The notes under the pieces were generated by a model. That model searched no databases. It was given only the letters and a program-made list of their open reading frames with translations, and had not been told where the DNA came from. A program made the translations under genes and the position numbers. A stretch of 64,000 nucleotides of DNA from Chthoniobacteraceae bacterium (GTDB lineage Bacteria; Verrucomicrobiota; Verrucomicrobiia; Chthoniobacterales; Chthoniobacteraceae), in assembly GCA_049840595.1 (NCBI GenBank), contig JASGKO010000023.1, positions 100,911 to 164,910 on the forward strand. Reading direction: 5' to 3'. Shown piece by piece: positions 8,855-56,491 of the stretch (position 1 is the first letter of the stretch; each line of letters starts with the position of its first letter).

Positions 8855-8883
8855 GGCGGGCAAATCTTGAAACAACTCATTTT

Positions 8884-18500: not shown

Positions 18501-18770
18501 GGCGAGTTCGCTGTAGATCTCCTCCTGCCGCCGCGTGTTGCCGCAGACGATCCAGAGGCGGCGCTGGCCCGGCCTGGGGGCGAGCACGGAACGGGCGATC
18601 AAGCCGACGAGAAACGGCTGCGCCTGCTCCGCGATATGCTCAAACACGATAGGCTCCCCTGCCCCTGCCGCCACCTGCTGCAAGGTGGCCGCCAATTCCG
18701 GGCACGACGCCGCGATCTCCAGCGGGGTTTCCGCAGGAGTTGCGACGGGAGCAGTGGGCGCTTTCGGCAT
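15566..18770 (-). pseudogene. mfd: Transcription-repair coupling factor Mfd, split across at least 5 ORFs by four or more frameshifts. Possibly sequencing errors rather than a true pseudogene.
   Basis: N-terminal UvrB-like region (17682-18770 ORF); DEAD/helicase region ([34 protein letters not shown]); helicase C-terminal region ([41 protein letters not shown]); C-terminal TRCF domain in the 15566-15928 ORF. These lie in different frames. Confidence 0.85.
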
Positions 18771-20756: not shown

Positions 20757-21494
20757 TTACTTCTGCAACGCAGCTTCTGCCGCGAAGTGGCCAGCAAGCT
20801 GGGTTACAAATGTTTTCAGGCTCGTCAGCTCTGAAAACTCTACATATTTGCCTGTCCTGGCCGTTGATCTTGGCGAAGTAATGAAGGCCGCCGAGGTATA
20901 GAGGTTTTCCTTTACCAGCTTCTGACAAAGAAGGTTATAACGGTCGGCATAGGAACAGTCGGAGAATTCTTTGAAAACTGGGAAATGGGGAGATCGATCT
21001 TTGACTGGAGTTCGCGAGGCCGGACAATCTTCGATGAGCATGAGCCAGCCAAGGAATGGCTTGGTATGGTTGCCGAGCGCACCTTCGCGGAAGGCCGTCA
21101 ACAGATCTACGGCAGAGCCAATCGCCTCCTCCGTGCGGTTGTTGAAGTTGTTACCAAAGCTGCCGACCTGGCTCTTCATTTCAATAACAGCCACCAATCG
21201 CCCGTTATTCATCACGACCATGTCCCACTGCTTGGTTGGGCGAAAATAGCCGGGAAGGGTCACGACACCCTTGTTAAGACAAATCTGAGCATGCGTAAGG
21301 CCATTAGCTTTAACCAGATCGCCGATCAAAACGAGGAACCCGTCCATGTTTTTACCCGCAGTCACCGCGCCCCGACTCCCGGCATCCAGTTTACCAGCCT
21401 GCTCCTGCTTCTTGAGGGCAGCGGCGCGGTTCCCCCAAAATGCTTGCACTGCTTCGGTGGCTTTTACCTCGTAGTTGGCTAAATCGAGTGGCAT
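20757..21494 (-). CDS. Putative type II restriction endonuclease (PD-(D/E)xK fold; size and pairing resemble the XhoI/PaeR7I family)
   Basis: 245 aa. Candidate catalytic motif D(91)...VIEMK. Immediately downstream of, and co-oriented with, an N6-adenine MTase (5-bp gap). Low-GC island. Confidence 0.55.
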
Positions 21495-21498
21495 ACTT

Positions 21499-23169
21499 TT
21501 AGTGTCCTAACCAAATACGCTCCTCCGAAGTGAGCCGGTAGAGCTCGAAAACAGCTTCATTTGCCATCGACTGATCACCATTTCTACCTGCAGAAATGAG
21601 TTGCTCCTGAATTTTTAAGGGGACCGAATTCCAAAATGGAATTCTGATTCGGCGAAGATATTGCGCTTGGAACCTTAGAAATCCACCGGCCATCTGCACC
21701 GAATAGGTGGAGACAAAAAGCGCCGCAATCCCTGATCGCAGCACCGCCTGGAGGGCATGCAAATCCCATATATCGGATGTAATGAAATAAAGATTGTGGT
21801 GGGGATATAACTTGCCGGATTCATAAACCACATGTGCTTTCCCTTTGATGTCCGGAATGAGGAGCTTGGGTCGCCGAGTCAGTGAGGACGTGATTTTATC
21901 AATGGTCCGATACCAGCGTCGTTCGTCACGTTGGGCGCAATTTCTTCTGCGAAGAATCCCGGCATGCATTTCAAAATAAGCCTTCAATTTCGGATATTTG
22001 TCCAAGTCCACCAGTTGTCCATCCTCTGAAAATGGATTCACCACGCCTTTGCCGGTCCATTCAACATTATCCCCAATGATGTCTTTGGTGACAGCCAGCG
22101 GAAGTTTTCGATCCTCCTCGACGGGGAGTTCGTTGTAGTCACTGACGTAAACCTTGTCTGCGCCGGTCGCCACCCCGATTCCCACTTTGCAGCCAGCTTC
22201 TTCGAGAGTAGGCAATTCGGACTCCAGCCTTCGGACAATGGAAACCTGATCCAGCCCTTGTAAAATCCACGGTTCCTCATCATCCGCCACCTCATCTACT
22301 CGTTGAACCGATGGATGATTACTTCTCCCTTGAAGGGCGGGCACCAATTCCGAAAGTGCACGAGCCTCGACAACTGGTCGATGCGCAACATACGTCACCG
22401 ACTTGGGCTCTCGCTTGATGAGAGTGATTGCCGGGTAAGCCAACACGTCGGACAAAAACGCATCGGTATTAACCATGTCCACATAGGCCATGAGGTGAAA
22501 GCGCTCGGAAATCATCCGCCGGAGGGCCGAACCGTATTTGTTCTTCATCCACCGGTCCGCACAGATAAAACAAAGCACTCCCCCCGGTTCCAGCGAGTTC
22601 AACCCTTTTTCAATGAAAGGAACGTAGAGATCGGCACGATCATACATCGTGGAAAAGCGGTCTCGATATTCAGCCAATAACACAGGCGAAATCGACTCCT
22701 GTCGGACATAGGGCGGATTACCAACCACGTGAGTAAATGATCCGCCCAAGAACGTTAGTAGAAAATCTCCTTCAATCACCCATGCCAGCGCCAACTCCAG
22801 AGCGTCGGTTTCCGAGAAGCCATTTTCGACAAGGAGCGTTTTAACCTTTTCTCGCGTCTTTCCACAGGTTTCGGAATGCACTTCCACAGATCGAATTGCA
22901 TGTTTCAGATCATCCGTCACTTCGTTTACGCCATGCAAAGACGCAAGCAACCGCTCAACGGCGGGTAAGAGAAAGTCTCCCTCGCCAACACTCGGTTCCA
23001 GGAGTCTCAGCTTGGCCAAATCCTGATCGCTGGTGTAACCCGAGAGGTCCAGGATGAAATCAACCACTGCCCTTCGGGTGAAAATCGCGCCACGTGCTTC
23101 ATTGCCTGACCTCGAAAGCTCAGCCAAAGCCGCTTCCAAGGCAGGTGTGGAGCAAAGAAGATCAAGCAT
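21499..23169 (-). CDS. N6-adenine-specific DNA methyltransferase (gamma-class, TaqI/Eco57I-like) with a C-terminal target-recognition region
   Basis: Motif [17 protein letters not shown], motif [12 protein letters not shown], motif IV VVGNPPY, in the gamma-class order. Confidence 0.85.
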
Positions 23170-24748: not shown

Positions 24749-26439
24749 GTGGGCGTGGAAGTAACGCAGTCGATTTCGCCCCCAACCAGCTCGCTTTTTT
24801 CCCGGCGGGCTGTTCGCATTCTGTTGATTGTGCTCGTGGGGCTGGCGGCGCAGGGGCATTGCCTGTGGTCCACCTTTTATCTCGACGATACGTGGCAGGT
24901 GGAGAACTCGGAGGCGGTGGAGGGCGGGCAGTGGTGGGCTGATCTGGTCAATTTGCTGCCGAATGCGAGCTACTACTTTACGTGGAAGTTTTTTGGATTT
25001 TCGGCGCCGATTTTTCATCTGGAGAATTTGCTGCTGCACTTGCTGGTGGCGCTGTCGGTGTATGGCTGGCGCGCTATTTCATGGCGCTGGGGAGCGGGGA
25101 GGAATCGGAGCGGTGGGAGAACGCGGCGTGGCTGGCGGCGCTGATTTTCGCAGTGCATCCGCTGACGACGGAGATGACCAACTATGTGCGGGCGCGGGAT
25201 CATGGGCTGGTGACGCTCTTTTCGCTACTGGCGGGGGGCTGCACGCTGCTGGCCCTGCAACGGCGCTGGCTGTGGGCGCTGGCGGCGCTGCTGGCCGTAG
25301 TGCTGGCGACGATCTCGAAGGGGCCGGGGCTGCCGCAGGCGCTCTGCAACTGCCTCGCGGTGGTGGGGGCGTATTGCTGGCTGCGCGGGTGGAAGGGCCT
25401 GCGGATTTCGTGGCCGGTGGGGCTGGCCGTGGGAGCGGCTGCGGGGCTGGTCTTCGCGGTGGCGTTCGGGCACATCCGGTATCTTTGGACCGTGCTGGCG
25501 GGGCAATTCGCGAATCCGCAATTTGGGTTGCATGCGCTCACGCAGTGCCGGGTGTTTCCGCAATACCTGCTGCGGATGGTGTGGCCGGTCGATCTGTGCT
25601 CGGATCACCTGGTGGCGTGGACGAAGGATTACGCCGATCCCACGGCGTGGGTCTATGTGGCGGGGGTGGTGGCGGTGCTGGGCGTGCTGGCTTTTCTCGG
25701 CCTGCGCAAGCGGCAGCCGTGGGCCCTGCTGCTGGGGCTGGCGCTGGCGCCGCTGCTGATGCGCTGGCTGTACCTGGTGAGCGAGTTGATGGTGGAATAT
25801 CGCACTTATCCCTGCCTGCCCTTCGTGGCGATGCTGATGGCGGTGGCGGTGCAGCGCTGGCTTCGCAAACAGCCCCGGGTGGCATGGGGCGTGGCCGGGA
25901 CGGTGCTGGTTTTCTTTTCGGCCCTCACTTTCCAGCGCAGCCTCGACTGGCGCAGCACGGATGCGCTTTGCACGCAGATCAGCACCCTTTATCCGCTGCA
26001 TTTGCGCGAGATGAATGAACGCTCGACGTGGGATCTCGATGCGGGACGCTACGAGGCGATTCTGGACCGGTATCCGGGATTTCTGGCCACGCTGAACAAG
26101 GTGATGGATTACAACCGCTCGACGCCGCATCGCTATTACGACAACTGGCCGCTGTGCGTGGTGAATGAGGAGTGCATGGTCTCCGAGGCGATGGCGCACG
26201 TGAAATCGAAGTGGGATGGGCAGGCGCATCTGGACCTGACCGCCTGGCGAATGCTGCAAAATCACATCTATCACCCCGGGCTGTGGGCGCAGTGGCATTA
26301 CTCGGCGGGGAACATTGCGCTGCTGGAGGGGGATGAAAAAAGCGCGCTCCAGCATTACTTGAATGCGCGGGCTTACATCGCGACGCCGCTGCTGGTGGAC
26401 CGGCAGATTGCGAAGATCGTGCCGGGGTATGGGCGATAG
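24749..26439 (+). CDS. TMTC/PMT-like (DUF1736-type) polytopic membrane protein with a C-terminal soluble region; frameshifted near 25070-25100
   Basis: GTG start. N-terminal region YYFTWKFFGFSAPIFHLENLLLHLLVALSVYGW is typical of DUF1736/TMTC. It continues in another frame (ORF 24982-26439) with AAWLAALIFAVHPLTTE. Confidence 0.6.
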
Positions 26440-27112: not shown

Positions 27113-27751
27113 TTACTTCACGGGACGGCGGAAGAGGAAGAGGTAGCTGTTAAACACGGTGTTGCCCCAAAGCGGACGCACTTCGACCTCGAAGCCGGCA
27201 GCCTTGAAGGGGGCGGTGATTTCCTCGATGCGCAGATAGTGTTTCGTCGAGAATTTCATCCAGCGGATTTTGGCGATGAACCACTCCTCCAGCTTGGTCA
27301 TGCGGAAGCGCCAGTTGTCCACGTAAGGCGTGGCGCGGATGAGGCAGAGGCCGCCGGGGGCGACCATTTGCGCGGCCTGCTGCAGCAGGGCCTGTTGCTG
27401 CTCCACTTCGAGGTAGTGCAGGACATCGATGATGGTGACGTTGCCGGAAAACGCACGCGGGATGCTGGCGTCGCCCTGCTCGAAGACGAGGTGATCGTAC
27501 AGGGCGCCCACTTTTTGCGCGGTGTCGATTTTCCGGGAGTCGAAATCAAGGCCGGTGATGGGGGGCCGGAAACCGTGCTCGCGCAGGTAATAGGCGAGCA
27601 GGCCCACGCCGCAGCCGAGATCGATCAACGGCTGATCGGTGTCGCGCAGAATTTCCCAGGCCGCCGCGAAGACGGGATCGCCCTTCAGCTTTCCCTTCAC
27701 GTAGCCCTGCATGAAGCGGCCTTTGAAATGAGAAGCAATGCGCTCGATCAC
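27113..27751 (-). CDS. Class I SAM-dependent methyltransferase
   Basis: SAM-binding motif I LIDLGCGVGLLA and the downstream acidic-loop pattern. Last gene of the 7-gene operon. Confidence 0.8.
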   Translation of the reverse strand: MIERIASHFKGRFMQGYVKGKLKGDPVFAAAWEILRDTDQPLIDLGCGVGLLAYYLREHGFRPPITGLDFDSRKIDTAQKVGALYDHLVFEQGDASIPRAFSGNVTIIDVLHYLEVEQQQALLQQAAQMVAPGGLCLIRATPYVDNWRFRMTKLEEWFIAKIRWMKFSTKHYLRIEEITAPFKAAGFEVEVRPLWGNTVFNSYLFLFRRPVK

Positions 27752-29049
27752 CGGATGGCAAAGTCAGCCGGGCGATGCCCGCGGATTCCGTATTTTCCCA
27801 GCATCCCGAGCAGCCACTTGCTGTAGGGACGGTTGATATAGGCGCCGGTCGCCATACCGCTGAGGTTTTTTTCCATATGCGCCTGCATCAGGTCGCTGAT
27901 CTTGCCGGGATACTTTGCGGAAATATCCAGGCCGGTGCGCTGGATGGCGAAGATGCGGCCGTCGTAAAAATAATCGATGAGATTCTGCCAGGCGGCGAGC
28001 ATGCCGCGGAGCCAGCGCCAGTAGGCATCGAACTCCCTGGGCAATCCCGGATGGGCGCCACCGCGGGCCGGGATGATTTCCGAGAGCCGTTCGGCGCTGA
28101 CCATGGCCATGCAGAGGCCCGGGGAAAGCATGGGGTCCACGAAACCGAAGGCATCGCCGACCATGGTCCAGTTCTCACCCGAGCCGTAGTCGGAGATGAG
28201 CTGGTAGTTGGCGAAGGTGGCGATGTCGGTGACGCGGCGGCGCTGGCCGCAATCGCTGGCGATGCGGGGCTCGTTGTCGATGATCGCTTCGAGCTGTTCC
28301 TCGGGCGTGCTGCCGAAGCGCCTGGCGTCGTCCTTGTTGATCACGACACCGATGGAGAGACGGCCCGGCAGCGGGATGCGCCAGGCCCAGCCGTACTGCA
28401 GGCGAATGGTCATGACGTGACCGCGCGGCTCGGGCCACGGGGCGTTTTCGTAGTGGGCGAAGTGGGAGATGTCCTTGCGCCGGCCCACCTTGGAACCGAT
28501 GCCGAGGAGTTTGGCGAACAAGCGGCGGCGACCGCTGGCGTCGATGACCAGATCGGGCTCGGAATCCCACTCGGGCACGAGGGCGAGCGACTCGGGGGCG
28601 AGCTTCACGCGCGACTTTTGTTTCGCCCCGGCATTGACCGCCTCCAGCCTGGCGGCGCTTTGAAGGTAGCGCACCCCGGAGTCGATCGCGGTCTTCAGGA
28701 TCAAAGCGTCAAATTCCTGGCGTGGCACGTTGTAAGCGTAAGGCGGGAGCAGCCCGCGGGTGGCGGTGAAGAAAAGCCGGATGTCCTGCTTTTCGTCGAA
28801 GGTGAAATTAACGCCGGGCTTGAGGACACCGATTTTTGCGACCTCTTCCTCGATGCCGAGGCGCTGAAAAATCGGCACCATGAGCGGAACGAGCGATTCC
28901 CCGACGATGAGGGGCGGGCGGGCTCCATCGTCGAACATGGCGACGGACGCGCCCTTGCGCGCGAGCAGCGCGGCGAGCGTGGCCCCAGACGGGCCGGAGC
29001 CGATGATGGCGACGCGGGTGGGGCGTTGGGATGAGGCAAGGTTGACCAT
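27748..29049 (-). CDS. Flavin-dependent halogenase (tryptophan-halogenase family)
   Basis: N-terminal GxGxxG (VAIIGSGPSGA) and the family-diagnostic WxWxIP motif (GWAWRIPLP). 4-nt overlap with the downstream MTase. Confidence 0.8.
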   Translation of the reverse strand: MVNLASSQRPTRVAIIGSGPSGATLAALLARKGASVAMFDDGARPPLIVGESLVPLMVPIFQRLGIEEEVAKIGVLKPGVNFTFDEKQDIRLFFTATRGLLPPYAYNVPRQEFDALILKTAIDSGVRYLQSAARLEAVNAGAKQKSRVKLAPESLALVPEWDSEPDLVIDASGRRRLFAKLLGIGSKVGRRKDISHFAHYENAPWPEPRGHVMTIRLQYGWAWRIPLPGRLSIGVVINKDDARRFGSTPEEQLEAIIDNEPRIASDCGQRRRVTDIATFANYQLISDYGSGENWTMVGDAFGFVDPMLSPGLCMAMVSAERLSEIIPARGGAHPGLPREFDAYWRWLRGMLAAWQNLIDYFYDGRIFAIQRTGLDISAKYPGKISDLMQAHMEKNLSGMATGAYINRPYSKWLLGMLGKYGIRGHRPADFAIR

Positions 29050-29064
29050 GGCGAGGTCTCAGTT

Positions 29065-30501
29065 TCAGCGTTGAATTTTCCCGCTCGGCGTTTTGGGCAG
29101 GGCGGCGACGAAGGTGTATTTAAGCGGGAGTTTGTAGCTCGAAAGGCGCGCCCGGCACCAGCCGATGAGCTCGGAAATTTTGGGCGGGGTGGCAGGATCG
29201 GCCACGACGATTTCGGCGACGGGCACGCTGCCAAAGGCGGGATGCGGGATGGCGATGACGCGCGATTCCTGCACGGCGGGGTGTTCGTTCAAAGTGGCCT
29301 CGACTTCCTCGGGAAAACATTTCATGCCGCCGACGTTGATCACGGAGTGCGTGCGCCCGGTGAGGTAGAGGGCGCCCTCGGCATCGCGCCGGGCCTGATC
29401 GCCGGTGCGGAACCAGCCATTTTCCAGGATCTCCGCGCGCGGCAGCCAGGGCGAGAGATAGGCATCGACGAAACCGGGACCGCGCAGGAAAAGCTCGCCC
29501 GCGATTCCGGTGGAGACCTCCGCGCCGTGTTCGTCGCGGATCGAGATTTCGTAGCCTGCCTGCGGACGTCCGACGGAATCGGGTTTCTCGACCGGCCATT
29601 GATCGTTTAACAACGGGAGGCCGCACTCGATGATGCCCATCGCCTGATGCAGCGGCAGACCGAAGCGCTCGACGAACTTTTGCCCGGTCGCCACGGGGAG
29701 GGCGGCGGCGGTGGAAACGGCGAGGCGCAGGGACGGAACCGGCTTGGCCGGCTCGTGACCGGCGAGCAGCGCGTAGTGAAACGGCGAGGCGTAGAGGGCG
29801 GTGCCCTGGTGCTTTTCCAAAGCGCGGAAGACGTCTTCGCCGAGATGCGACTCCTCGATCACGGTGGTCGCACCGTGCAGGAGATAGAGCACGATGGAGA
29901 CGGCGAAGTGATGGGCCATGGGCAGCACCCAGATAATTCGATCCCCGGGGCCGAAACGAAGGTGGCTGTTGCTGGCGGTGACGCGGGCGAGGAGTGTCTC
30001 GTGGGAGAGCACGACGCCCTTGCGCTTGCCGGTGGTGCCGGAGCTGAAGCGGATGAGCGCGGGATTCACTGCCGCGAGTGCGTCCTCGGAAAAATCGACG
30101 GCCCCCTCGCGCAGCCCGGTCAGGAGCGTGGCCTCGCCGAGACCGGCGGCGTGCAGCGGGCGGGAATTGGGAGCAGGCCGGTGCCACTCCCTGCCATCGG
30201 CGCAAAGGACGGCATCGAGGCCGGTGGTGCGGAGCTGCGCCTCGCGCTCGGGGTGGCTCAACTCCGGGGCGACGGGCACCAATACGCCGCCGCACTTGAG
30301 CACGGCGAGAGACCAGACGATGTGGGCGATGCCATTCGGACAATGGAGACCGATCCGCTGGCGGCCCGCCTCCCCCAGGGCACTCGCCGCCGCGAGCATT
30401 TGCGCCTCGACGTCGCCAAAAGTCAACGAACGCTCCCCGGCAATGATGGCCACCGCCGAGCGATCGGCGCGCGCAAAGATTTCATCAACGACATTCATCA
30501 T
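29065..30501 (-). CDS. Acyl-AMP/acyl-CoA ligase (ANL adenylating enzyme)
   Basis: AMP-binding core FSSGTTGKRKGV, YASPFHY, TGDQARRDAEGALYLTGR, LPKTPSGKIQR. Confidence 0.85.
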   Translation of the reverse strand: MMNVVDEIFARADRSAVAIIAGERSLTFGDVEAQMLAAASALGEAGRQRIGLHCPNGIAHIVWSLAVLKCGGVLVPVAPELSHPEREAQLRTTGLDAVLCADGREWHRPAPNSRPLHAAGLGEATLLTGLREGAVDFSEDALAAVNPALIRFSSGTTGKRKGVVLSHETLLARVTASNSHLRFGPGDRIIWVLPMAHHFAVSIVLYLLHGATTVIEESHLGEDVFRALEKHQGTALYASPFHYALLAGHEPAKPVPSLRLAVSTAAALPVATGQKFVERFGLPLHQAMGIIECGLPLLNDQWPVEKPDSVGRPQAGYEISIRDEHGAEVSTGIAGELFLRGPGFVDAYLSPWLPRAEILENGWFRTGDQARRDAEGALYLTGRTHSVINVGGMKCFPEEVEATLNEHPAVQESRVIAIPHPAFGSVPVAEIVVADPATPPKISELIGWCRARLSSYKLPLKYTFVAALPKTPSGKIQR

Positions 30502-31763
30502 ATGCGGGAAGAATTGAGCCGGGAGGTTCTAACACGCGTGGCGAGCGCCTGCCAATCCCCGGCAACGGGATTGCGAAGATTTTCCACGGCCGCGAGCGCA
30601 GCGGCTTCACCAGTGGCCAGGCAGGTGCCCATGACGCGGATCGAAGCCTGCGCTTCGTGCGAGGCGGAGAGGCAACGTCCAGCGACCCAGAGATTTTCCA
30701 CCGCGCGGTGTTTCAACGAGCGCAGGGGAATCTGCGGGACGACCCCCGGCTCGGGATAGCGCCAGCGCGGGCCGGTGGCCTTTTCGCGCAGCTCGACGGG
30801 CCAGGCGGCGACGGCGACCGCATCCGGAAAAGGGGTGCCGGAAAGGAGATCTTCCACCGGCAATTCATACACGCCAGCAGCCCGGCGGCTTTCCCGCACG
30901 CCAGCACGGGATGGCCATTGCGCCACGACGCAGGATTCGCAGCCGGCGATTTTTTCCCGCAGGTGCCGCACAATGGCGAGCGCGGTGCGGCGTCCGGTGA
31001 ATTCCACTTCCGCCAGCAATTCTGGCGCGCACGGGTCCCACTCGCCTCCGGTGAGATCAATCGTCATGAAGGCCTCGTCGTTGCGCATTCCGGCGCGGAA
31101 GCCGGTGCCGAGGGCTTCGCCGGGCAATTCACCGGATTTCACGGCGGCGGCGATGGCATGGGCGAGCTTCAGCCGACCCGAGTCATCGAAGAAGCCCGGG
31201 GGAAAGCCGCGCAGTCCGACGATGTAGGCGGGGCGTTGCAAGCGGGCGGACTCCACCTGCTCGAAGGCCGCGCCACCGAGCACGGTGAGCGTGGCGTCGC
31301 CAGTGGTATCAATGAAGGCGCGGGCGTGAATTTCCCGGCGCTCGCCGCGGCAAATGACCTGCACCTGGTTGGCAGTGAAATCCGCGGCCACCAACTCGCT
31401 GTGCAGCCAGCAGTTCAAGCGCGGCGTCTCGTTGACCATCGCATCGGCCAGGGCCGCGAAGCTCACGGGATCGTGCGGGAGCACATCCACGCGGCCCATG
31501 CGCACGGGTTCTTTCGCGCCGCCGCTTTGCAGGAGACGCCCGGCAAATTCGCGCGGAAAACCGTCATTGGCCCAGGCGACGCCGGGTTCCTCGCGCATGA
31601 GGTAGAGCCCGCAAATCGTATGCACGAGGGCCGAGGTGCCCATGCCTCCGAGGAGCCCGCCACGCTCGATGAGCAGGACTTCGGCCCCGGCCCGGGCGGC
31701 ACTGATCGCGGCGGCGATCCCCGCGCTGCCTCCTCCGGCGACCAGCACGTCGCAGGTCGTCAT
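30498..31763 (-). CDS. FAD-dependent oxidoreductase (FAD_oxidored/GidA-like fold)
   Basis: N-terminal dinucleotide-binding motif VLVAGGGSAGIAAAISAARAG. Start and stop overlap neighbours by 4 nt. Confidence 0.7.
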   Translation of the reverse strand: MTTCDVLVAGGGSAGIAAAISAARAGAEVLLIERGGLLGGMGTSALVHTICGLYLMREEPGVAWANDGFPREFAGRLLQSGGAKEPVRMGRVDVLPHDPVSFAALADAMVNETPRLNCWLHSELVAADFTANQVQVICRGERREIHARAFIDTTGDATLTVLGGAAFEQVESARLQRPAYIVGLRGFPPGFFDDSGRLKLAHAIAAAVKSGELPGEALGTGFRAGMRNDEAFMTIDLTGGEWDPCAPELLAEVEFTGRRTALAIVRHLREKIAGCESCVVAQWPSRAGVRESRRAAGVYELPVEDLLSGTPFPDAVAVAAWPVELREKATGPRWRYPEPGVVPQIPLRSLKHRAVENLWVAGRCLSASHEAQASIRVMGTCLATGEAAALAAVENLRNPVAGDWQALATRVRTSRLNSSRI

Positions 31764-33493
31764 GCCGCGCCGAGATCGGTGAGGAATTGGTCGAGCATCA
31801 ACTGGCGCTCGGTCGCATCGAGCGCGCCATCATGCCAGCACATGGTGACAATGAGGCGACCGTTCTTCTCGTTGCAGAAGATGCCGGTGCCGGGCGGCGT
31901 GGCGATGCCGGGGACGTGATAGGCGTTCACCACTTTGGCGCCGAGAAACTCATTCATCCCGCTCGCAAACTCGCCGGTGTGCGAGTGGAAGAAGGAGGCG
32001 AACGGCCCCTTCATCTGAAGCTGCACGAAGCGCATGTAGAGACCGGCGGGGATGACGCTCATGCTGTGCATGAGGTCGTTGAGCGATTCGCCGAGGCGCT
32101 CCTTGAGGAAGCGGGCCTGCTGCTCCAGCAGCGAGGCGGTGGCGGTCTCGATGCTGCCGATCTGGTCCCGCTCCAGCACCCCGAAGAACATGGTGAGATG
32201 GTTTTGAAAAATCGGCCCGCGCGCGCCCTTGCGGCGGCGTTGCACCGGGACGTTGCAGGTGTGCGAGGCCGGAACCAGGCCGCGATGGGCGAAAACACGA
32301 TCGTGCGCACGCATCGAGCAGGCGAGGTAGAACGGCAGGTTGATGAGCCCACCGCAGAGCGAGGCGCAGCGTTCATTGGCCTTGCGCGTCTGCTCTTCAG
32401 TCAAGGTGTGGACGAGGAAACGGGTGACGCCCTTCTTTGGCGTGCGCGAGCCGAGACAGGAAATCGTGTGCTGCGAGAGCTTGCGGAAGAACTGGACGAT
32501 GGGGCGGGCGGTGATCCAGCGCTCTTTCCAGGTGGCCGTTTCGTCGTCCAGCGCGGAGTCCACGCCGGGGATCGGTTCGTCGCTGGAGTCGGAGCCGAGA
32601 CGCTGGAGGTCTTGCAGGAAGAATTCCGCGCCGACGCCATCCATCATCAGGTGGCTCCAGGAGAACATGAGGATGACGGTGCCATCGCGGGTCTCAAAGA
32701 GGCTGAAGCGGGCCTTGGGCCAGACTTTCGCTCCCGTGCGGGGCATGGGGTCGTTGATGACCGCTTCCATCTGGGAATGGATGTCGGTGCAGGGCTGCCC
32801 CCCCTCGGCGAGGAGCTGGCCAGCGGACCCCTGCTCGCTGAACAGGCGCAACTCCGGCACGGCGGGTTCTGCGGACGGCACCCAATAGGGGATGCCGAAG
32901 AAAAAATTCCGCTTCAACAACGCGGAAAGCATCGGATAAACCTCCGCCGCACGGGCAAGGAGCGAGCGCAGGCGGGCCAAATCGGGCACATGATCGAGCA
33001 CGAGAATGGAGTGGGCCCGGTGCCCCCCCTGCCCGGCTTTGCGCGACAGCGTGTCGAAGCCGAGCACGAAATAATCGCAGCCGCGCATCGGCAGTTTTTC
33101 AAAGGTCATGTTGCACGTCGTGCGCTTCGCCGGCTCGGGCCTGGTGCCGTTGACCGACGGGGGGATGACCGGAGCGACGGCGGCGACGGGAGGGGCGGGC
33201 GTCTCCTCCGGAGCCGGGGCAGTTTCGGCTGGGCCCAGCTTGGTCCGCAATAGATCGGCAATCGTCCGGACGGTGGAGAAATTCTTTCGCGAAACGGATT
33301 CCACCGGGATGCTGACGTGGAACTCCTCCTCCAGCACGAGCAGGAGCTGCATGATCGCCATGGAATCCAGCCCGGCGGCGTAGAGATCGCTATCTGGCGA
33401 GAAGCCGTCCCCGGTTTCCAAAATCCGCTCGCTAATGAGCGTTAACAGATTGTTTTCAAGGTCTTCGGGAGCAGGAGCCGTCGGTAAATTCAT
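31760..33493 (-). CDS. Fusion protein: N-terminal acyl carrier protein domain plus C-terminal condensation-like acyltransferase domain (NRPS C / WS-DGAT / PapA5 superfamily)
   Basis: Ppant attachment site GLDSMAIMQLL near the N-terminus; HxxxDG catalytic motif (SWSHLMMDGVG) in the C-terminal domain. Confidence 0.7.
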   Translation of the reverse strand: MNLPTAPAPEDLENNLLTLISERILETGDGFSPDSDLYAAGLDSMAIMQLLLVLEEEFHVSIPVESVSRKNFSTVRTIADLLRTKLGPAETAPAPEETPAPPVAAVAPVIPPSVNGTRPEPAKRTTCNMTFEKLPMRGCDYFVLGFDTLSRKAGQGGHRAHSILVLDHVPDLARLRSLLARAAEVYPMLSALLKRNFFFGIPYWVPSAEPAVPELRLFSEQGSAGQLLAEGGQPCTDIHSQMEAVINDPMPRTGAKVWPKARFSLFETRDGTVILMFSWSHLMMDGVGAEFFLQDLQRLGSDSSDEPIPGVDSALDDETATWKERWITARPIVQFFRKLSQHTISCLGSRTPKKGVTRFLVHTLTEEQTRKANERCASLCGGLINLPFYLACSMRAHDRVFAHRGLVPASHTCNVPVQRRRKGARGPIFQNHLTMFFGVLERDQIGSIETATASLLEQQARFLKERLGESLNDLMHSMSVIPAGLYMRFVQLQMKGPFASFFHSHTGEFASGMNEFLGAKVVNAYHVPGIATPPGTGIFCNEKNGRLIVTMCWHDGALDATERQLMLDQFLTDLGAA

Positions 33494-33507
33494 GCAAACC
33501 GGGAGAG

Positions 33508-34230
33508 TTAGCCAGCGCGTCTTTCCCCTGTCAAGCCAGTGCAGGCTTTCTCCAAACTAGCCGGGCGCGCGGCCAGGGGCTGCCCCGATGCGCCTTTTAC
33601 CCATTCCGGGCGGCGGCGCATTCCTTCGGCAAGGGAGCGCATGGCTTGCTCGATCTGCCCGGCCATGATCCGGCGGTCTTCCCGGCGGTTCCCAGTGTGC
33701 GGCGGGTGAATGGGCTCCCCACAGACCACCCAGAGGCGGCAGGGCTTGGACATACGCCAGACCATGGGCCGCAGGAGCGCTTCCGAGCCGAGCACCACAC
33801 AGGGAATCACCGGCTTGCCGCTGCGCATGGAGACCAGGCACACCCCGCGCTTGATCCGCCCTCCGCGCAGGACGGACTCCGCATCGCGCTTGATCTCGCC
33901 TTCAGGGAAAATCCCGACCACCTCGCCCGCCTGGGCCAGGCGGATGGCGGTCTTGACCGCACTCACCGGCACGCCCTGGCGATTGACGGGAAAGGCCCCC
34001 ACCTCTTTCAGCAGGCGGGTGCTCCACCAGGAACGGTAAAACTCGACCCGCGCCATCCAACGAACGTGACGCTTGAGGACCACACTGACGCAAAACGGGT
34101 CGAGATGACTCGCATGCGTGCACGCCAGGACATACCCCCCCTCGCGCTCGCTCTGGGCCAGATCGAGTCGCAGGCGGATGGTGCGGTGGAACACACGTCC
34201 CGAAAAGAAGCGGACAAGGGAGTAGAACAT
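33508..34230 (-). CDS. PlsC-type lysophospholipid/glycerol acyltransferase (LPLAT)
   Basis: H(x4)D motif (CTHASHLD) and IFPEGE motif. Confidence 0.8.
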   Translation of the reverse strand: MFYSLVRFFSGRVFHRTIRLRLDLAQSEREGGYVLACTHASHLDPFCVSVVLKRHVRWMARVEFYRSWWSTRLLKEVGAFPVNRQGVPVSAVKTAIRLAQAGEVVGIFPEGEIKRDAESVLRGGRIKRGVCLVSMRSGKPVIPCVVLGSEALLRPMVWRMSKPCRLWVVCGEPIHPPHTGNRREDRRIMAGQIEQAMRSLAEGMRRRPEWVKGASGQPLAARPASLEKACTGLTGERRAG

Positions 34231-34232
34231 CG

Positions 34233-35013
34233 TCAGCGCAATTGGTCGTCGGCGGGGATGACAAAGGAATAGCCGCGATTCTGCAACTCTTCAACCACGC
34301 GGAGAATGGTCTGGTTACTTTTGGCACGGCCCTCGTGGAGGAGGATGATGCCGCCCGGGTGGGCCTGGGGCACGACGCGCTCCACCACTTTTTCCACATC
34401 GCAGATGAGGCCGTCGTGGCCGCGAATATTCCAGGCGACCAGGCGCATTTCCAAGCCCGCCAACAAGGAGTGCAACCGCACATGCTTGAGCCCGAAAGGA
34501 GCACGGAACCAGCGCCCCACCTGCACCCCGGTGCGGGCGAGGCGTTCGTTTCCGCGGACCACCTCATCCCGCAAGGCCCAGGGCAGCAGCGCCCAGAAGG
34601 TCGCGACCGGGTGCGTGTGCGTATGATTGGCCAGGGTATGGCCGAGCGTCATCATCGCGCGGGCGGTTTCCGGCTGCTTTTCCAGGCGTTCACCGATGAC
34701 AAAAAAAGTCGCCCGCACCTGCCGCTGGGCCAGTTCCCGGGCCAGGGCCATCGAGTTTTCCCCATCCGGACCGTCGTCGATGGTAAGCCACAGTTCCTTT
34801 TTGTCCGTCACAAACCGGGTCACCACCGGCCCGAAAATCCCCGAGGAGGGCGCGATCAATCCGTAAATAAAGCTCCCATGTACCAGGCACGGCCGGGCCA
34901 GCCATCCACCAATGCCAGCCGAGCCCGATGACCAGCGCGGGCAGGGCCAGATTGAGCAGCAAAAAGCCCCGGCGCAGCCATGGCGTATCGAGCGGCTTGG
35001 GAGATTGGAGCAT
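34233..35013 (-). CDS. Polysaccharide deacetylase (NodB homology domain), probably membrane-anchored; N-terminal region in a different frame (frameshift about 34860-34900)
   Basis: TIDDGP and NHTHTHP motifs. An alternative-frame N-terminus (ORF 34690-35085, from Met at 35013) gives a TM helix LLLNLALPALVIGLGWHWW. Confidence 0.7.
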
Positions 35014-35153
35014 CCGGGTTGCATAGCATGGCCGTTTTCCTGGAGGCAAGAGTGCTGCTTTCTTTTGTGCAATCTTTTTTATCACCTATAAAAAGCCCTT
35101 CCAAAATTCCTGCGGTTGTCGCCCGGCGGTCCTTGTGCAATTCTGGCCGCCCG

Positions 35154-36090
35154 ATGTCTCAACCGCCACCAGCCCCGCAAGCACGCCGCACTTCCGGCTG
35201 GTATGGCATTGCCTGTTTCAAGCTGGCCCATTATGCGACCTATGTGATCCCCCGGCACCTCGGAATGCGGGTGGCGGATTTGCTCGCGGCGATCACCTAC
35301 CGGCGGGCGCGCGCCGGACGCGCGGCGCAGCGGGAAAATCTCCACACCGCCACCGGGCTGAGTGGCGCGGCACTCGAACAGCTCTGCCGGGCCAATTACC
35401 GGAACTTTGCGCGGATGCTCACCGATTACTTCTACCTCACCCGCTCGGGAGGCGCGCACCTGCGCAGTCTCCTGCACGGCTGGAGCGGCATCGAATACCT
35501 GAAGACCGCGCGGGAACAGGGGCGCGGGGTGATTCTGATCACGGCACATCTGGGGCATTGGGAGATGGGGGGCATCCTGCTCTCCCTGGATGGCATGCCG
35601 ACGAATATCATCACCCTGCCCGAGCCGGGGAGTCTCAACGAATGGCGCGAGGCCAACCGCCGCGCAGCCAGGGGTAAAAACGATCACCGTGGGCGCGGAT
35701 AAATTCGCCTTTGTGGAAATCATGCGGGTGCTGCGGCAGAACGAGTGCGTCGCCATGCTGGTGGACCGGCCCTATGCCGGCAGCGGCGTGCCGGTGAAAT
35801 TGTTCGGGCAGGATACGGAGTTTTCCAGCGGCCCGGTGCGACTGTGGGAACACACCGGCTCGCCGATTCTCCCGGCGTTCGTCCTCCAGCGACCGGATGG
35901 TTTTTATACCTCCTTCATCGCACCACCGGTGGAGCTGGACCCCGCGCTGTCGCACGAACAGAACACCCAGCGAATTGCCGACAGCTTCGCGGAGATCATC
36001 CGCCAGCATCCCGAGCAGTGGTATAACTACGTGCCAGTTTTTAAATCCTCCGAGCGCCCGGCCGAAGAACCGGTTGCGACCGCCAAGTAG
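35154..36090 (+). CDS. LpxL/HtrB-family lipid A (lyso-lipid) acyltransferase, frameshifted near 35660-35700; divergent from the 7-gene operon
   Basis: ILITAHLGHWEMGG (HX4E-type LABLAT motif) in the 34980 ORF. C-terminal half (MLVDRPYAGSGVPVKLFGQDTEFSSGPVRLW...EQWYNYVPVFK) in the 35590 ORF. Confidence 0.7.
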
Positions 36091-37434: not shown

Positions 37435-38398
37435 CTACAGTTCGGCAAGGAATCGGAACACTTTGTCGCGGAACCCGGGCAACACTTCGTGGGAAAAATC
37501 CGGGTAGATTTCCATCTGCTTCTTCGCGGTGATCTTGTTGTAGGCGGCGAATTGGGTGGAGGGCGGGCACACCGTATCCATGAGGCCGGTGCCCATCAGG
37601 ATTTCCCCGCGAATCCGCGCGGCGAGATGCTGCACATCCACGTAGCCGAGGCGGGTAAAGATCTCGTGCTCGCGCTCGTGGCGCGGGTCGAACATGCGGA
37701 AGAAATAGCGGAAGCTCGGCGTAGGCATCCTTCGCCTGATCCATCTCCCACACTCGCTTATAATCGGAGAGGAAGGGAAAGGTGGCCGCCGCACGCTTGA
37801 TCCGGTGCGGAGCCAGTGCCGCGCAGGCCAGCGTGAGGGCACCGCCCTGGGACTCCCCATAGGCCCCCATGCGTTCGGCATCGACCTCCGCAAAACCGGC
37901 GACGATTTTTGCCAGGAGCGCGGTATCGAGAAAAATCTGGCGGAAGGCGAGCCGCTTCGGGTCGGCATCCCCCAGCCCGCGCACGATGTGGCCCTCAAAA
38001 GTGGTCCCGCGCGCGCCCCCGAGGTCGTCGCTTTTGCCGCCCTGCCCGCGGCAGTCCATCGCCGCAAGCGCAAGGCCCGCCGCGGGGAAAGCCAGCTTTT
38101 CCATCCAGTCGCCGCTATGCCCGCGGTAGCCGTGAAAATTCAAAATCGCCGGGACTTTTTGCGCGCCCCGCGGACGCAGATATTTCGCATAGATGCGACT
38201 GCCGCCGACGCCGGTGAAATACAGGTCGAAGCATTCCGCAAACGGCGCCTGAAACGGTGCGGAGGTGAGTTCCACTTGGGGGTCGAGCGCCTCCAGCTCG
38301 GCCAGGCCTTCGTTCCAGTATTCATCGAAATCCGCCGGGCGCGGGTTGATGCCCTGGTAGTCCTGCAGTTCGGAAAGGGGTTTATCGACAAGCGGCAT
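37435..38398 (-). CDS. Acetyl xylan esterase / cephalosporin-C deacetylase family (AXE1) serine hydrolase, frameshifted near 37700
   Basis: N-terminus [28 protein letters not shown]; GxSxG nucleophile YGESQGG. C-terminal quarter continues in ORF 37435-38073. Confidence 0.7.
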
Positions 38399-39408: not shown

Positions 39409-39605
39409 CAATTCGCAGTGTGGCTGAAAATTGCGCCTGCGGGAAGCTACGTCGGTGAAAAATCGGCGCGCGCGATTCCGGGGGGGTGACGGTCCCTTCC
39501 TCTTTGTCGTTGCTGCTTGCCCCTGCTGAAATATCCCTGCTACCGTGCGGCCCAGTGACCGAGCCACAGGAAACTGCACCCGAAAAGAAAAAGCGAACTG
39601 GATGT

Positions 39606-42600
39606 ATGCGCAAACTGGCGTTTTGCGCGCTGCTTGCTTTCCTGCTGTTCCTGGCGGCGCTGGTGGGCGTTTATCTGGCCCGCTTTCCCTTGATCAAGTA
39701 TGCGGCGGCCAAGCTGGGACCGACGCAGAACCTCGCCATCTCCCTCGACCTGGAGGGCTCGCTGTTCACCTCGCTCACGGTGGACCACCTCAAAATCGTC
39801 CCCACTGGCCCGAGCGAAATCGTGGGCATCAACGTGGACCATGTGAGCGCGCACTACCATTTGCTGAAATTGATTCGCGGCGACTTCACGCACGGCATTG
39901 AGGAAGTGGAAGCGCGCAACGCCTTCATCGAACTGCGGCCCGACGACGCGGTGGCGGAAAAGCTCGGCCACAAGAAGAAGCAGATCATGCGCTGGGACGA
40001 TCTCTTCCATAATCCCGGGCTCTTCATTCGCAATATCGCGGGAGACAACATCAACTTCATCTCGCACACCCCGGCCAGGGGACGTGCGGATCGAGCGCGC
40101 CAGCGCGCACCTCCAGCCCGGCGCAAACGGCCCGATCAAGATCGGCCACTTCGAGATTCCCGGCTACGGCAGCTGGGACCACGTGCAGGCCAATGCGAGC
40201 AACGATCGCGGGATCGTGCAGGTGAACGGGCTGTATCTCGACCAGCTCAACGGCGTGGACACGCTCACGCTCGACTCCACCGGGCGCACGCTCAAGCTGG
40301 TGGGGCGCTACAAGGGAGCGGGCGCGAATGTCTCGCTGGCGGTGGTCAATGAGATCGGGCATCTCCAGTTTGAGGCGGAAATCCCCAAGGTGCCGACGCT
40401 GCTCCCGCAATTCCACAGCGGGGAATTCACCGCCGCGGGCTCGCTGGAGATTCGCCAGCGCGACATCGGCCTGCACGTGACGGGAGCGGTCAACCAACTG
40501 ACCAGCGACTCGTTCGATACGGGCCATGCCGAGTTCACGCTCAATGCGACGGATACGCTCATCCCGCGCCCGCTCAAGCCGCTGGATGGACTGGTGAGCC
40601 AGTTGAGCGTGGCATTTCAAGCCCTGCGCTTCAACCAGTATGCGCTCGATCAAGGCGCACTGACCGCGAGCAACCAGCATGAGAAAGTGGAGATGGCCAG
40701 CTTCACCTTCTCCCGCCAGCAGAACCACTTTGCGCTCAAGGGAAGCGCGGTGTTGCCGACGGATTTGAAGCAGATCACGACCACGCCGTTCTCGATCGAC
40801 TTCACGCTGCACGCGCCAAATCTCGCGGGCTTCAACGTCGAGCAGGATTTGAAATCGCTCAACGGCTCGCTGGAAGGCACGGGCAGCCTGCACCACCAGA
40901 ACAACATCTATAGTGGCGAAGCGACGCTCGCGGGCACGAACCTGAATTTCCAGGGCTTCAACACGCAGAAGCTGAATACGCGCCTCACCTTGCAGGATCG
41001 CGTGATCCAGTTCACCGAGCTGTTCCTTGACATCAACGGGCGCGACTTCGTGAATGCGTGGGCACAGATCAACCTCGACTTGCCGAATGCCTACTCCGGC
41101 CACCTGCAGGCCAGCGTGGCCGATCTCGGCATCTTCAATCCCCTGCTCCACGCGGCCAATCCCACCGCCGCGCTCGCGGGCTCGCTGCAGGCGGACTGGC
41201 TGGGCAACGGCACGCTGCAACCGCAGGCGCACCACGGCTGGCTGCAAGTGGTGGCGGACAAGGTGGAGAGCAGCGGCGCGAAGGTCGATCACGCCCAGAT
41301 CAGCGGCACCTACACGCCGGAGAAAGCGACCTTCCCCGATCTCGATATCGCGAGCGGCCCGAGCCATTTCGTGGGCCAGCTCGAGCTCGCGGAAGGCAAG
41401 CTGCGGCTGCACGACATCGCGCTCGACCAGAACGGGCTGCGCGTCCTCGATGGCTTCGTCATCATTCCCTGCGCGCTCGCGAAATACCAGCAACCGGCGC
41501 AGCTTTTCCCGCTTGAGGGCCGCATCGCCGCCAATCTCCAGGCGGACAATCTCGACCTGGAAAAGCTGCTCGGCAGCTTCGGCCAGAAATCGCCGGTGAG
41601 CGGCAATCTCACGCTGAACCTGCTCGCGGCGGGCAGCCTGGGCGAGCCCGTGGCCACGGTGCAGCTCGACGCCCGGAAGCTCAGCGTGCCGCAGACGGCC
41701 TCGATCGGCCCGACCGATGCGAGCCTGCAATTCCATATCGCGAAAAAGCAATCCACGCTCGACGGCACAATCAAGCAGGCGCAGATGCAACCGCTCACGC
41801 TTCATGGCGAGACCGCGCTGGATATCGAAAAGCTGGTGCAAAGCAAAAAGCTCGATCCGCAGACACCGATCAAACTCGATGCCTCGATCCCGGCCTCCTC
41901 GATCGCCTTTGTGGAAAAACTCGCGCCGGCCATTCGCTATATCGAAGGCACGGTCGCGCTCGAAATGCACGCGCAGGGCACGGTCGGGAATCCCGATCTG
42001 CGCGGCCAGGCGATGCTGAACATCCCGGCCCTGCGCTTCAACAACCAAAGCCTGCCGACGGTCAACCAATTCGGCGCGGAGATCCGCTACGAAGGAAAGA
42101 AGGTCGTGATCAAGCGCTGCGGGGGGGGCATTGCGGGCGGCCAGGTAAACCTGGAGGGCACGGTGGACGTCGCGAATCTCCAGCAGCCCACGCTCGCGCT
42201 GCGCTTCAAGGCCGACAACGCGCTGCTCGCGCGAAACGACTCGGTCACGCTGCGTGCCAATTCCGACATCCACATCGACGGCCCGCTGGCGACGGCCAAG
42301 GTGAAGGGCTCGGTCAATATTACGAAGAGCCGCTTCTTCCGCGACATCGAGATCCTGCCCATCCAGCTCCCGGGCCACGGCCCCGAACCCGGGCATCAAC
42401 CAACCACAGGTCTCCATCACGGCCAAGCCGGTGGCCGACTGGACCTTCGACGTGGCGATCAAAACCAGCGATCCCTTCATGGTGGCGGGCAACCTGGCGA
42501 AAGGCGCGGTGGACACCGATCTGCATCTCGGGGGCACGGGGCGGACGCTCTCGCTCGAAGGTTACGCGGAGATCGACAACTTTGTCGCCTCGCTCCCCTT

Positions 42601-43090
42601 CAGCAAACTGGAGGTGCCCTATGGGTATGTCTATTTCACCAAGGACGAACCTTTTACCCCGCAGCTCGACATCCAGGGCAGTTCCTCGATGCGCGGCTAC
42701 GATATCTCGGTCTATATCTACGGCGATCCCGGCAATCCGCTCACCATCTTCACCAGCCAGCCCCCGCTGCCACAGGAGGAAATCATCTCGCTGCTCGCCA
42801 CGGGCCTGACCACAAGCGAGATCACCACCAATGGCGATGCCGTAGCCGGGCGCGCGGCGGTGCTGGCGTTCCAATCGCTCTATCGCAAGATTTTCAAACA
42901 CTCCGAGGCGACGGAAAAGGATTCGTTCCTGGATCGGTTCGAGTTCGACATCGGGGGGGTGGACCCACGCACCGGGCACCAGGATATCTCGGCCCAATTC
43001 CAACTGACCAAGCGCTTCTTCCTCGTCGGCGCGCTGGATGTGCAAGGCAACCTCACCGGCCAGGTGAAATACCTCATTCGATTCAAGTGA
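39606..43090 (+). CDS. tamB: TamB-like translocation and assembly module protein (AsmA-like/DUF490), with frameshifts near 40080 and 42390
   Basis: N-terminal signal-anchor MRKLAFCALLAFLLFLAALVG; very long beta-rich body; C-terminal DUF490-like segment ORF 42431-43090 (...GQVKYLIRFK). Located immediately upstream of a TamA/BamA-like gene. Confidence 0.75.
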
Positions 43091-54745: not shown

Positions 54746-54823
54746 GCCGCAGTGTAGCACAACCGAAAAGGCCACCCGCAAAGGTTGTCTTGCGGCAAGG
54801 GTTGTGCTTGGCTGCACAGTTCA

Positions 54824-56461: not shown

Positions 56462-56491
56462 GGACAGAATGTCATCGAAATAGCGCGCACC

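Follow-up and report, generated by a model that had tools for sequence, protein, structure and literature searches.

Introduction

Aryl-polyene (APE) clusters are regarded as the family of biosynthetic gene clusters that is most widespread among bacteria, and their full products have been solved only recently. The aryl-polyene lipid of Xenorhabdus is a polyene acid esterified to GalNAc-phosphate-diacylglycerol; ApeD has been proposed as a glycerolipid acyltransferase, ApeJ as a glycosyl/acyl-transferase that takes an acyl group bound to the acyl carrier protein (ACP), and ApeM and ApeL as exporters (10.1101/2020.12.19.423268). Xanthomonadin-type clusters, for example that of arcuflavin, bring together a methyltransferase (MTase), a polysaccharide deacetylase, an exporter, LolA, acyltransferases, an AMP-ligase, an ACP and a halogenase beside the ketosynthase (KS), ketoreductase (KR) and dehydratase (DH) (PMC3949708). 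Here we analyze a locus from a Chthoniobacteraceae bacterium (Verrucomicrobiota), consisting of seven closely packed minus-strand genes (27113-35013) and a divergent plus-strand acyltransferase gene (35154-36090), in a stretch of 64,000 nucleotides (assembly GCA_049840595.1, contig JASGKO010000023.1, positions 100,911 to 164,910), which in its entirety we term the window. The locus is best read as an undescribed, polyketide-free relative of the APE/xanthomonadin lipid pathways. A search of the full-text literature for this gene set found no description, in agreement with an earlier sequence-only reading of the same DNA, which had matched it to no described pathway.

Like the APE, xanthomonadin and flexirubin clusters, the window combines an AMP-ligase and an ACP with a halogenase, an MTase, a polysaccharide deacetylase and acyltransferases of both the PlsC and LpxL types. 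The acyltransferases that anchor the APE lipid, namely the lysophospholipid acyltransferase (LPLAT) ApeD and the LpxL-like half of ApeJ, have counterparts in the window that match at the family level only. As to the starter ligase and ACP of APE clusters (ApeH/ApeE), a ligase and a carrier are present here, and the ligase gives no BLASTP match to E. coli ApeH at E<0.01. The MMPL exporter (ApeM) and LolA-like carrier (ApeL) of APE clusters recur in the relatives of the window, both being absent from the window itself. In contrast to the APE clusters, the window has no KS, chain-length factor (CLF), KR or DH, and, unlike those of E. coli and Xenorhabdus, it encodes a condensation-fold protein and a flavoprotein of the PF12831 family.

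The locus also recalls other systems in which a ligase charges a carrier. The VibE/VibB/VibH system comprises an aryl-acid ligase, an aryl carrier protein and a stand-alone condensation enzyme. The window similarly pairs a free-standing ligase with a carrier and one condensation-fold enzyme, which could release the acyl group onto a nucleophile that is not carrier-bound. However, its carrier is fused upstream of the condensation domain, that domain is too divergent to be detected as PF00668 and has Ser in place of the first His of the catalytic motif, and the genomic context is lipid metabolism as opposed to siderophore synthesis. AlmEFG of Vibrio cholerae, which modifies a membrane glycolipid, lipid A, with glycine, likewise uses a ligase, a small DltC-like carrier and an LpxL-family transferase, the last corresponding to the divergent gene here. 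Unlike it, the window adds a condensation-fold protein, a flavoprotein, a halogenase, an MTase, a PlsC-type enzyme and a deacetylase; to our knowledge, AlmEFG has no equivalent of the first three. The halogenases Bmp2, Mpy16, PltA and CndH are of the same short variant with the same catalytic motifs as that of the window and are its best solved relatives; their pathways use an amino-acid adenylation domain and an acyl-CoA-dehydrogenase-type flavoenzyme, whereas the window has a CoA-ligase-like ligase and the PF12831 flavoprotein. Finally, Aas, which unites an acyl-ACP synthetase with a lysophospholipid acyltransferase, offers a further working analogy; like it, the Vib, Bmp/Plt and AlmEFG analogies each break down at one defining feature or more.

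The Carrier, Condensation-Fold Domain and Associated Enzymes

At the heart of the operon is a gene (31760-33493, minus strand) whose 577-aa product is a didomain: a carrier domain (residues ~8-88; Pfam PP-binding) is followed by a disordered linker (89-124) and a domain of the condensation superfamily (~125-577). The carrier resembles aminoacyl carrier proteins and the D-alanyl carrier protein DltC, and its attachment residue, Ser44 in the motif GLDSMAIM, is invariant among 37 homologues. The domain after the carrier has no Pfam match (none to PF00668, Condensation, at E<0.01); a sequence search of the PDB with it retrieved nothing, and a few homologues of the condensation-fold protein have weak precomputed PF00668 matches only. 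Its placement comes instead from a fold search. Foldseek matches an AlphaFold model of the didomain (pLDDT 87.5) to condensation-superfamily structures, with E-values of ~1e-23 to 1e-18: C, Cy and E domains are found, as are AzeD, LgrA, SrfA-C, TRI3 and didomain structures of a peptidyl carrier protein with a condensation domain (PCP-C); model and matches together support the two-lobed chloramphenicol-acetyltransferase-like fold. The best structural match is AzeD (PDB 8s6l; E 7e-23, TM 0.75 on the target, 17% identity).

The catalytic motif here takes the form S280-H281-LMM-D285-G-V-G288. The residues H281, D285 and G288 are invariant in the 37 close homologues and present in 127-128 of the 128 members of the wider family, while the residue preceding the catalytic His, a Ser in the window, varies in that family (H 46, D 24 and S 18 of 128). 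Thus, the fusion of a carrier domain to a condensation-type domain with an HxxxDG motif, as proposed in the sequence-only reading, is borne out by the fold and the three catalytic residues and fits a system that activates, loads and transfers an acyl group, with acyl transfer as the predicted activity of the second domain. Pfam likewise agrees with all the other domain calls made in that reading.

The ligase (29065-30501, minus strand; 478 aa; Pfam AMP-binding and AMP-binding_C), separated by a 15-nt gap from the halogenase gene, is an adenylate-forming enzyme of ANL class I with the P-loop SSGTTGKRKG and the C-terminal Lys in PSGKIQR. We take its LPMAHHFAVS segment to be of the acyl/aryl-CoA-ligase type, as against the FDxS type of the amino-acid-activating domains of nonribosomal peptide synthetases (NRPS). 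The solved proteins to which the ligase comes closest in the PDB are feruloyl-CoA synthetase, benzoate-CoA ligase, oxalyl/malonyl-CoA ligases, FadD13 and MenE; DltA is not found among its top 60 PDB relatives, and the A4 region is of the CoA-ligase type. Judged by these features the protein is an acyl/aryl-CoA-ligase-type adenylating enzyme, for which an alpha-amino acid is an unlikely substrate. The intervening gene, which overlaps those of the ligase and the didomain by 4 nt each, encodes a 421-aa flavin adenine dinucleotide (FAD)-dependent oxidoreductase (30498-31763, minus strand; Pfam FAD_oxidored, PF12831, E 5e-85).

The flavin-dependent halogenase (27748-29049, minus strand; 433 aa; Pfam Trp_halogenase and FAD_binding_3) overlaps the MTase gene by 4 nt. 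It is a short enzyme of the 'variant B' type and possesses the motifs GSGPSG, GWAWRIP (the WxWxIP signature noted earlier) and GDAFGFVDP, along with K77, which aligns with the Lys of KPGVN in Bmp2. The Lys, WxWxIP and GDAxxFxDP are invariant among 47 halogenases adjoining the core in related loci. Its best PDB matches (E 7e-33 to 1e-21) are FasV (8zop), Bmp2, Mpy16, CndH, ChlB4, CmlS and PltA; the PrnA-type Trp halogenases match at ~5e-5 only, and the C-terminal domain of the Trp halogenases is absent. By these match values the enzyme classes as a short phenol/pyrrole-type and not a Trp-type halogenase. Many short phenol/pyrrole-type halogenases act on carrier-tethered substrates; clade membership and gene adjacency suggest that the window enzyme may do so too. 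The last gene of the operon (27113-27751, minus strand; 212 aa; Pfam Methyltransf_23/25/12/11) codes for an S-adenosylmethionine (SAM)-dependent MTase with the SAM-binding motif LIDLGCGVG and weak NCBIfam similarity to UbiG-type O-methyltransferases.

The remaining genes are those of lipid and glycan-modifying enzymes. The PlsC-type (lysophospholipid/glycerol-phosphate) acyltransferase (33508-34230, minus strand; 240 aa; Pfam Acyltransferase, PF01553), 14 nt from the didomain gene, has its HX4D motif in THASHLDP along with FPEGE, and shows NCBIfam similarity to the acyl-ACP-phospholipid O-acyltransferase Aas and to AGPAT. Two nt from it lies the first gene of the operon (34233-35013, minus strand), which encodes a NodB/CE4 deacetylase with an N-terminal membrane segment (Pfam Polysacc_deac_1, E 5e-23) and the CE4 motifs TIDDGP, HTHTHP, RAPFG and ILLHEG, in which the Asp-Asp and His-His metal ligands are kept. 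The divergent gene (35154-36090, plus strand) specifies an LpxL/PatA-family (lipid A-type) acyltransferase of ~310 aa (Pfam Lip_A_acyltrans, PF03279) with the HX4E motif HLGHWE, the best NCBIfam match of which is the phosphatidylinositol-mannoside acyltransferase. The catalytic motifs of all three enzymes read as intact, and the frames of the deacetylase and LpxL-like genes are broken in the present assembly, as detailed below.

Elsewhere in the window we observed LpxI (760-1698) and a second, intact LpxL-family acyltransferase gene (54785-55795), with a PMT_2/ArnT-like glycosyltransferase (56315-57907) beside the latter. Given this second gene, the LpxL-like gene of the cluster is an extra paralogue and not the housekeeping version.

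Operon Structure and the Absence of a Polyketide Core

The open reading frame (ORF) calls agree with the earlier account of seven packed genes joined by 4-nt overlaps or short gaps: the junctions comprise three overlaps of 4 nt and gaps of 15, 14 and 2 nt, and the third-position GC (GC3) of all seven ORFs lies between 0.76 and 0.83. The presumed promoter region is the 140-bp divergent intergenic region (35014-35153) between the gene starts at 35013 (minus) and 35154 (plus). A scan of it found no sigma-70-like consensus, a negative that says little for this phylum, and promoter-like and terminator-like signals at the locus are at the background level. Hence, it is the spacing that argues for a single transcript: this part of the one-transcript claim stands, and no promoter or terminator signal adds to it.

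The window ORFs that were scanned across the 64 kb have no KS, KR or DH domains and no FabA/ApeI-like domains, so that the earlier statement that the KS/CLF/KR/DH core is missing holds. A tblastn search with an ApeR-like KS found nothing in the window and two weak matches (31%), probably FabF, among 86 related loci that extend up to 10 kb on each side; KR and dehydratases (ApeQ, ApeI/ApeP) are likewise absent from the recurrent neighbor families of the related loci.

Conservation across Verrucomicrobiota

Homologues of the didomain number 105 at E<=1e-3, and those with an organism name are all from Verrucomicrobiota, except for one labelled just 'bacterium'. Taking one genome per species yielded 80 loci, in which ORFs were called and clustered and the recurrent families annotated. 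Nearly all of these are labelled as Verrucomicrobiota, namely Chthoniobacterales, Terrimicrobiaceae, Verrucomicrobiaceae and one metagenome-assembled genome (MAG) labelled Akkermansia; three have another or no taxon label, one of them being Enterobacteriaceae. The odd labels of two MAG loci with a condensation-fold gene, L084 (Akkermansia muciniphila) and L034 (Enterobacteriaceae), are perhaps binning or naming errors; L084 also holds an MMPL gene and a partial ligase match.

Co-occurrence was counted in those loci whose flanks reach 6 kb or more on each side of the core. Among the 27 such loci of Chthoniobacterales, the flavoprotein is found near the core in every one (27/27), the ligase in 25, the halogenase in 19, the MTase in 15, and PlsC (often duplicated) and the deacetylase in 14 each; conservation is lowest for the LpxL-like gene (7/27). 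The gene set is thus co-conserved in Chthoniobacterales, and random adjacency is ruled out since the arrangement is kept across dozens of their genomes.

Chthoniobacter has a larger cluster, in which two neighboring genes encode the carrier and the condensation-fold protein separately. In the Chthoniobacter locus L061, for example, the order is LolA, LpxL, MMPL and halogenase; then deacetylase, PlsC, PlsC, patatin, ACP, condensation-fold protein, FAD oxidoreductase, ligase, halogenase and MTase; then MMPL, LolA and halogenase. The fuller clusters of the relatives thereby gain a patatin, another PlsC, exporters of the MMPL type, LolA-like carriers and further halogenases (up to three per cluster), and some other related loci add a flippase-like LPG_synthase_TM protein. 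These additions strengthen the membrane-lipid destination suggested earlier. As the window is devoid of patatin, MMPL, LolA and LPG_synthase_TM, its cluster is, by gene content, a reduced version of a larger conserved one. The recurrent neighbors that are otherwise unexplained are housekeeping genes: ROK kinase, pantothenate kinase, an aminotransferase, GHMP kinase and RNA cyclase.

The Core Module beyond the Phylum

A profile of the condensation-fold domain, scored against 1.84 billion representatives (50% identity), detects at least 951 proteins at E<=1e-3 (262 of them reach E<=1e-30), mostly stand-alone versions of 430-460 aa. In all four non-Verrucomicrobial contexts that were sampled, the four genes for the carrier, condensation-fold protein, flavoprotein and ligase are kept together, three times adjacent and once interrupted by a radical-SAM gene. 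Two of the four contexts are clusters of the aryl-polyene type. In the first, a JGI contig (3300072015), the module sits among KS, ApeI-like dehydratase, LpxL-like and PlsC-MTase genes, with the radical-SAM gene between those for the condensation-fold protein and the flavoprotein. In the second, L086, it lies within a full APE cluster; the KS there is 58% identical to ApeR of E. coli CFT073, and the LpxL-like protein there has its match in the C-terminal half of ApeJ (E 1e-49). Thus, the observation in the sequence-only reading that APE clusters share accessory genes with the locus was right as far as it went; the link runs deeper, the core module itself being embedded in APE clusters elsewhere.

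For the polyene starter, the cluster of L086 includes an ammonia-lyase, an ACP and an ApeH-like ligase outside the module, whose own ligase is distinct from the ApeH-like one; hence, the module there would supply something other than the starter. Of the two other contexts, L085 (a MAG labelled Proteobacteria) combines the core with two halogenases, an amine oxidase and an AurF-type arylamine oxygenase, and L087 combines it with a B12/radical-SAM enzyme (8290-9642) and has no lipid genes. Phytoene-desaturase-like amine oxidases accompany the module in the JGI contig, L085 and L086. The radical-SAM and amine-oxidase neighbors hint at further, different tailoring of the same carrier-bound substrate. 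We tentatively suggest that the core may be an unrecognized, widespread cassette that makes and attaches a non-polyene, often halogenated head group to outer-membrane lipids, and that it replaces the APE type II polyketide synthase in Chthoniobacterales; this broader proposal is rather less likely than not to be right.

A Proposed Pathway and Its Alternatives

We propose that the operon serves to place a tailored acyl group on a membrane lipid: the group would be loaded on the carrier, tailored there and transferred to a head group or lysolipid. The deacetylase would ready an amino-sugar acceptor, and the acyltransferases would add fatty acyl chains. We see this proposal as evenly poised between right and wrong. 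Its kernel, a minimal activate-load-transfer system for a halogenated acylated lipid, had been advanced in the earlier reading and is supported as far as sequence analysis reaches.

Briefly, the following sequence of events may be envisaged. The ligase would adenylate a carboxylic acid, more likely an aromatic or hydroxy-aromatic acid of small size than a fatty or amino acid, and charge Ser44 of the carrier with it. The PF12831 flavoprotein would then oxidize or desaturate the acyl group in its tethered state, the halogenase would chlorinate or brominate it, and it would also be methylated. Next, off-loading by the condensation domain would place the group on a lipid head group or a lysolipid, at an amine or hydroxyl; this role is assigned to the domain because the minimal module of L087 has no other releasing enzyme. 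On an N-acetyl-hexosamine head group, the deacetylase would uncover an amine, and fatty acyl chains would be attached by the PlsC-type and LpxL-type enzymes. Finally, in the relatives, patatin, MMPL and LolA-like proteins would serve in lipid remodelling and in export to the outer membrane; in the genome of the window these functions, if used at all, would come from outside the 64 kb. An aromatic acid is favored, not decisively, on three grounds: (i) the clusters hold up to three phenol/pyrrole-type halogenases; (ii) feruloyl- and benzoate-CoA ligases are among the best solved relatives of the ligase; (iii) an AurF-type enzyme adjoins the module in L085.

Several observations weigh against this proposal. 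The product, the acid and the acceptor are all predicted from the genes alone. The PDB E-values of the aryl, short-chain and fatty-acid ligase relatives lie within a few orders of magnitude of each other, so close that similarity of the ligase cannot separate these classes of acid, and the recurrent neighbors of the Verrucomicrobial loci include no chorismatase or aromatic ammonia-lyase that might supply a precursor. The flavoprotein is placed no further than its family, PF12831. Among solved structures, the one closest to the condensation-fold domain belongs to a dehydratase, AzeD, and the first His of the HHxxxDG motif is a Ser in the window. On the lipid side, patatin, MMPL, LolA and LPG_synthase_TM genes are missing from the whole window; the similarity of the LpxL, MMPL and LolA proteins of L061 to the E. 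coli Ape proteins is at the family level (E 5e-3 to 1e-9); and the deacetylase and LpxL-like genes are frameshifted in the present assembly. Further, in Verrucomicrobiaceae the didomain gene is mostly unlinked to the others, with the flavoprotein near it in 0/16, the ligase in 3/16 and the halogenase in 6/16 loci.

Of the competing explanations, the one that survives best casts the condensation-fold protein as a tailoring enzyme (a dehydratase, isomerase or aromatase) acting together with the flavoprotein, and has a PlsC- or LpxL-type acyltransferase move the finished acyl group from the carrier to the lipid. AzeD, a dehydratase, is the founding member of a clade of C-family proteins that stand alone and vary in the first His, and it works on a free alkaloid intermediate of an NRPS pathway (10.64898/2026.07.17.738954). 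The substitution of the first His is common to AzeD and the window domain; the former is stand-alone, whereas the latter is fused to, and in Chthoniobacter adjoins, a carrier protein. Moreover, the condensation-fold and flavoprotein genes are always adjacent, or in one contig have a single radical-SAM gene between them, and such constant adjacency is expected for a two-enzyme transformation. The acyltransferases could plausibly perform the transfer, as the PlsC protein resembles Aas-type acyl-ACP:lysophospholipid acyltransferases and the LpxL-like domain of ApeJ has been proposed to take an ACP-bound acyl group. However, the identity to AzeD is only 17%, there is, as with true condensation domains, essentially no variation at the catalytic His, Asp and Gly, and the minimal module of L087 has no acyltransferase or thioesterase nearby for release. 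We consider this explanation unlikely, if deserving of serious attention.

Another possibility is a decoration of lipid A or lipopolysaccharide (LPS) in the manner of AlmEFG, in which the ligase loads a small acid on the carrier and the LpxL-family enzyme moves it to lipid A. The requisite architecture of ligase, carrier and LpxL-family acyltransferase is present, the carrier has the resemblance to aminoacyl and D-alanyl carrier proteins noted above, and lipid A genes (LpxI and the second LpxL-family gene) occur in the window. Against this, the ligase does not resemble DltA/AlmE, no other member of the cluster is conserved as little as the LpxL-like gene, and the MMPL, LolA, patatin and PlsC genes of the relatives point to a glycerolipid and not an LPS route; we give such a decoration little credence.

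Equally doubtful is the notion of a small and soluble product, for instance a halogenated aryl amide, made in the manner of VibE/VibB/VibH, with the lipid genes being neighbors that have a separate role. The minimal modules of L087 and L085, which are without lipid genes, and the carrier-condensation gene often standing alone in Verrucomicrobiaceae are in keeping with it; yet in Chthoniobacterales overlapping operons intersperse the core with the genes for the lipid acyltransferases, patatin, MMPL and LolA.

Lastly, an ordinary APE/xanthomonadin-type pigment cluster with its KS/CLF/KR/DH elsewhere in the genome is very improbable: although the accessory genes match xanthomonadin-type clusters, the core module occurs within genuine APE clusters of other bacteria and antiSMASH 'arylpolyene' regions have been reported in some Verrucomicrobiota (a study of Ca. 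Udaeobacter found only low-similarity 'arylpolyene' and 'ladderane' regions), no KS, KR or DH is found in the 64 kb and two weak KS matches are all that 86 loci yield despite the otherwise tight clustering, the APE starter of L086 has its own ligase and ACP apart from the module, and the window ligase has no detectable similarity to ApeH.

Frameshifts and Other Features of the Window

The integrity of the cluster genes was gauged against two independent assemblies of one relative, L003 (JGI) and L004 (ENA), with a protein identity of 85-91%; both hold the same nine genes intact. For the deacetylase, the start given in the sequence-only reading stands: 35013 is a real ATG (MLQSPKPL..., leading into the membrane segment). 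The single uninterrupted frame does not, as a 1-nt insertion near 34888-34904 relative to the 87%-identical relative (L003) puts the start in another frame than the stop at 34233 (a span of 781 nt). The break sits upstream of the catalytic domain. Likewise, the identity and divergent orientation of the LpxL-like gene were correctly called, and its split by a 1-nt insertion near 35667-35671 had been missed. The resulting two ORFs match positions 17-171 and 181-293 of the Lip_A_acyltrans profile, and the gene is unbroken, at 304 aa, in L003/L004.

Frame changes relative to L003/L004 were also seen in AXE1, a TamB-like gene and a gene for a 563-aa unknown protein, and the GH53 and Mfd genes are split too, as judged by Pfam profiles. 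The spans concerned in the window are 15396-18770, 24749-26436, 34888-34904, 35667-35671, 37438-38398, 39555-42994 and 57954-58980. Because so many unrelated genes of the window are broken, the frameshifts are most likely indel errors of the assembly rather than signs of gene decay. On the same ground, pseudogenization of the deacetylase and LpxL-like genes is unlikely; the two are treated here as probably functional in the organism, which is not to say proven.

A 1746-aa ORF (39898-45138, plus strand) reads as a TamB-POTRA-Omp85 fusion. The fusion is probably an artefact, since the TamB-like gene of the relative maps to three frames here (39555-42994), and the Omp85/POTRA part likely belongs to a distinct TamA-like gene, which an open frame in GC-rich DNA has linked to it. 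At 20757-23169 (minus strand), an XhoI-family restriction endonuclease and an Eco57I/TaqI-type methylase form a restriction-modification island that was probably horizontally acquired (GC 0.50-0.55 against ~0.61). A further low-GC stretch (~0.50), at 8-12 kb of the window, contains a gene for a 777-aa protein with VWA and chitobiase-C/Fn3-associated domains (8884-11217, plus strand), which is unrelated to the cluster.

Conclusions

The locus presents the lipid-anchoring and export logic of the APE systems around a different, polyketide-free core. Detection rules of the standard kind, which are keyed to the KS, would probably miss such clusters. As the core module is common and at times resides in genuine APE clusters, solving its function in one organism would allow the annotation of hundreds of loci. 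If the product is indeed a halogenated envelope lipid, these systems would supply new carrier-dependent halogenases, and Chthoniobacterales would carry enzymatically halogenated membrane lipids of an undescribed kind, with a bearing on the protection of the outer membrane and on signaling in these abundant but poorly cultured soil bacteria.

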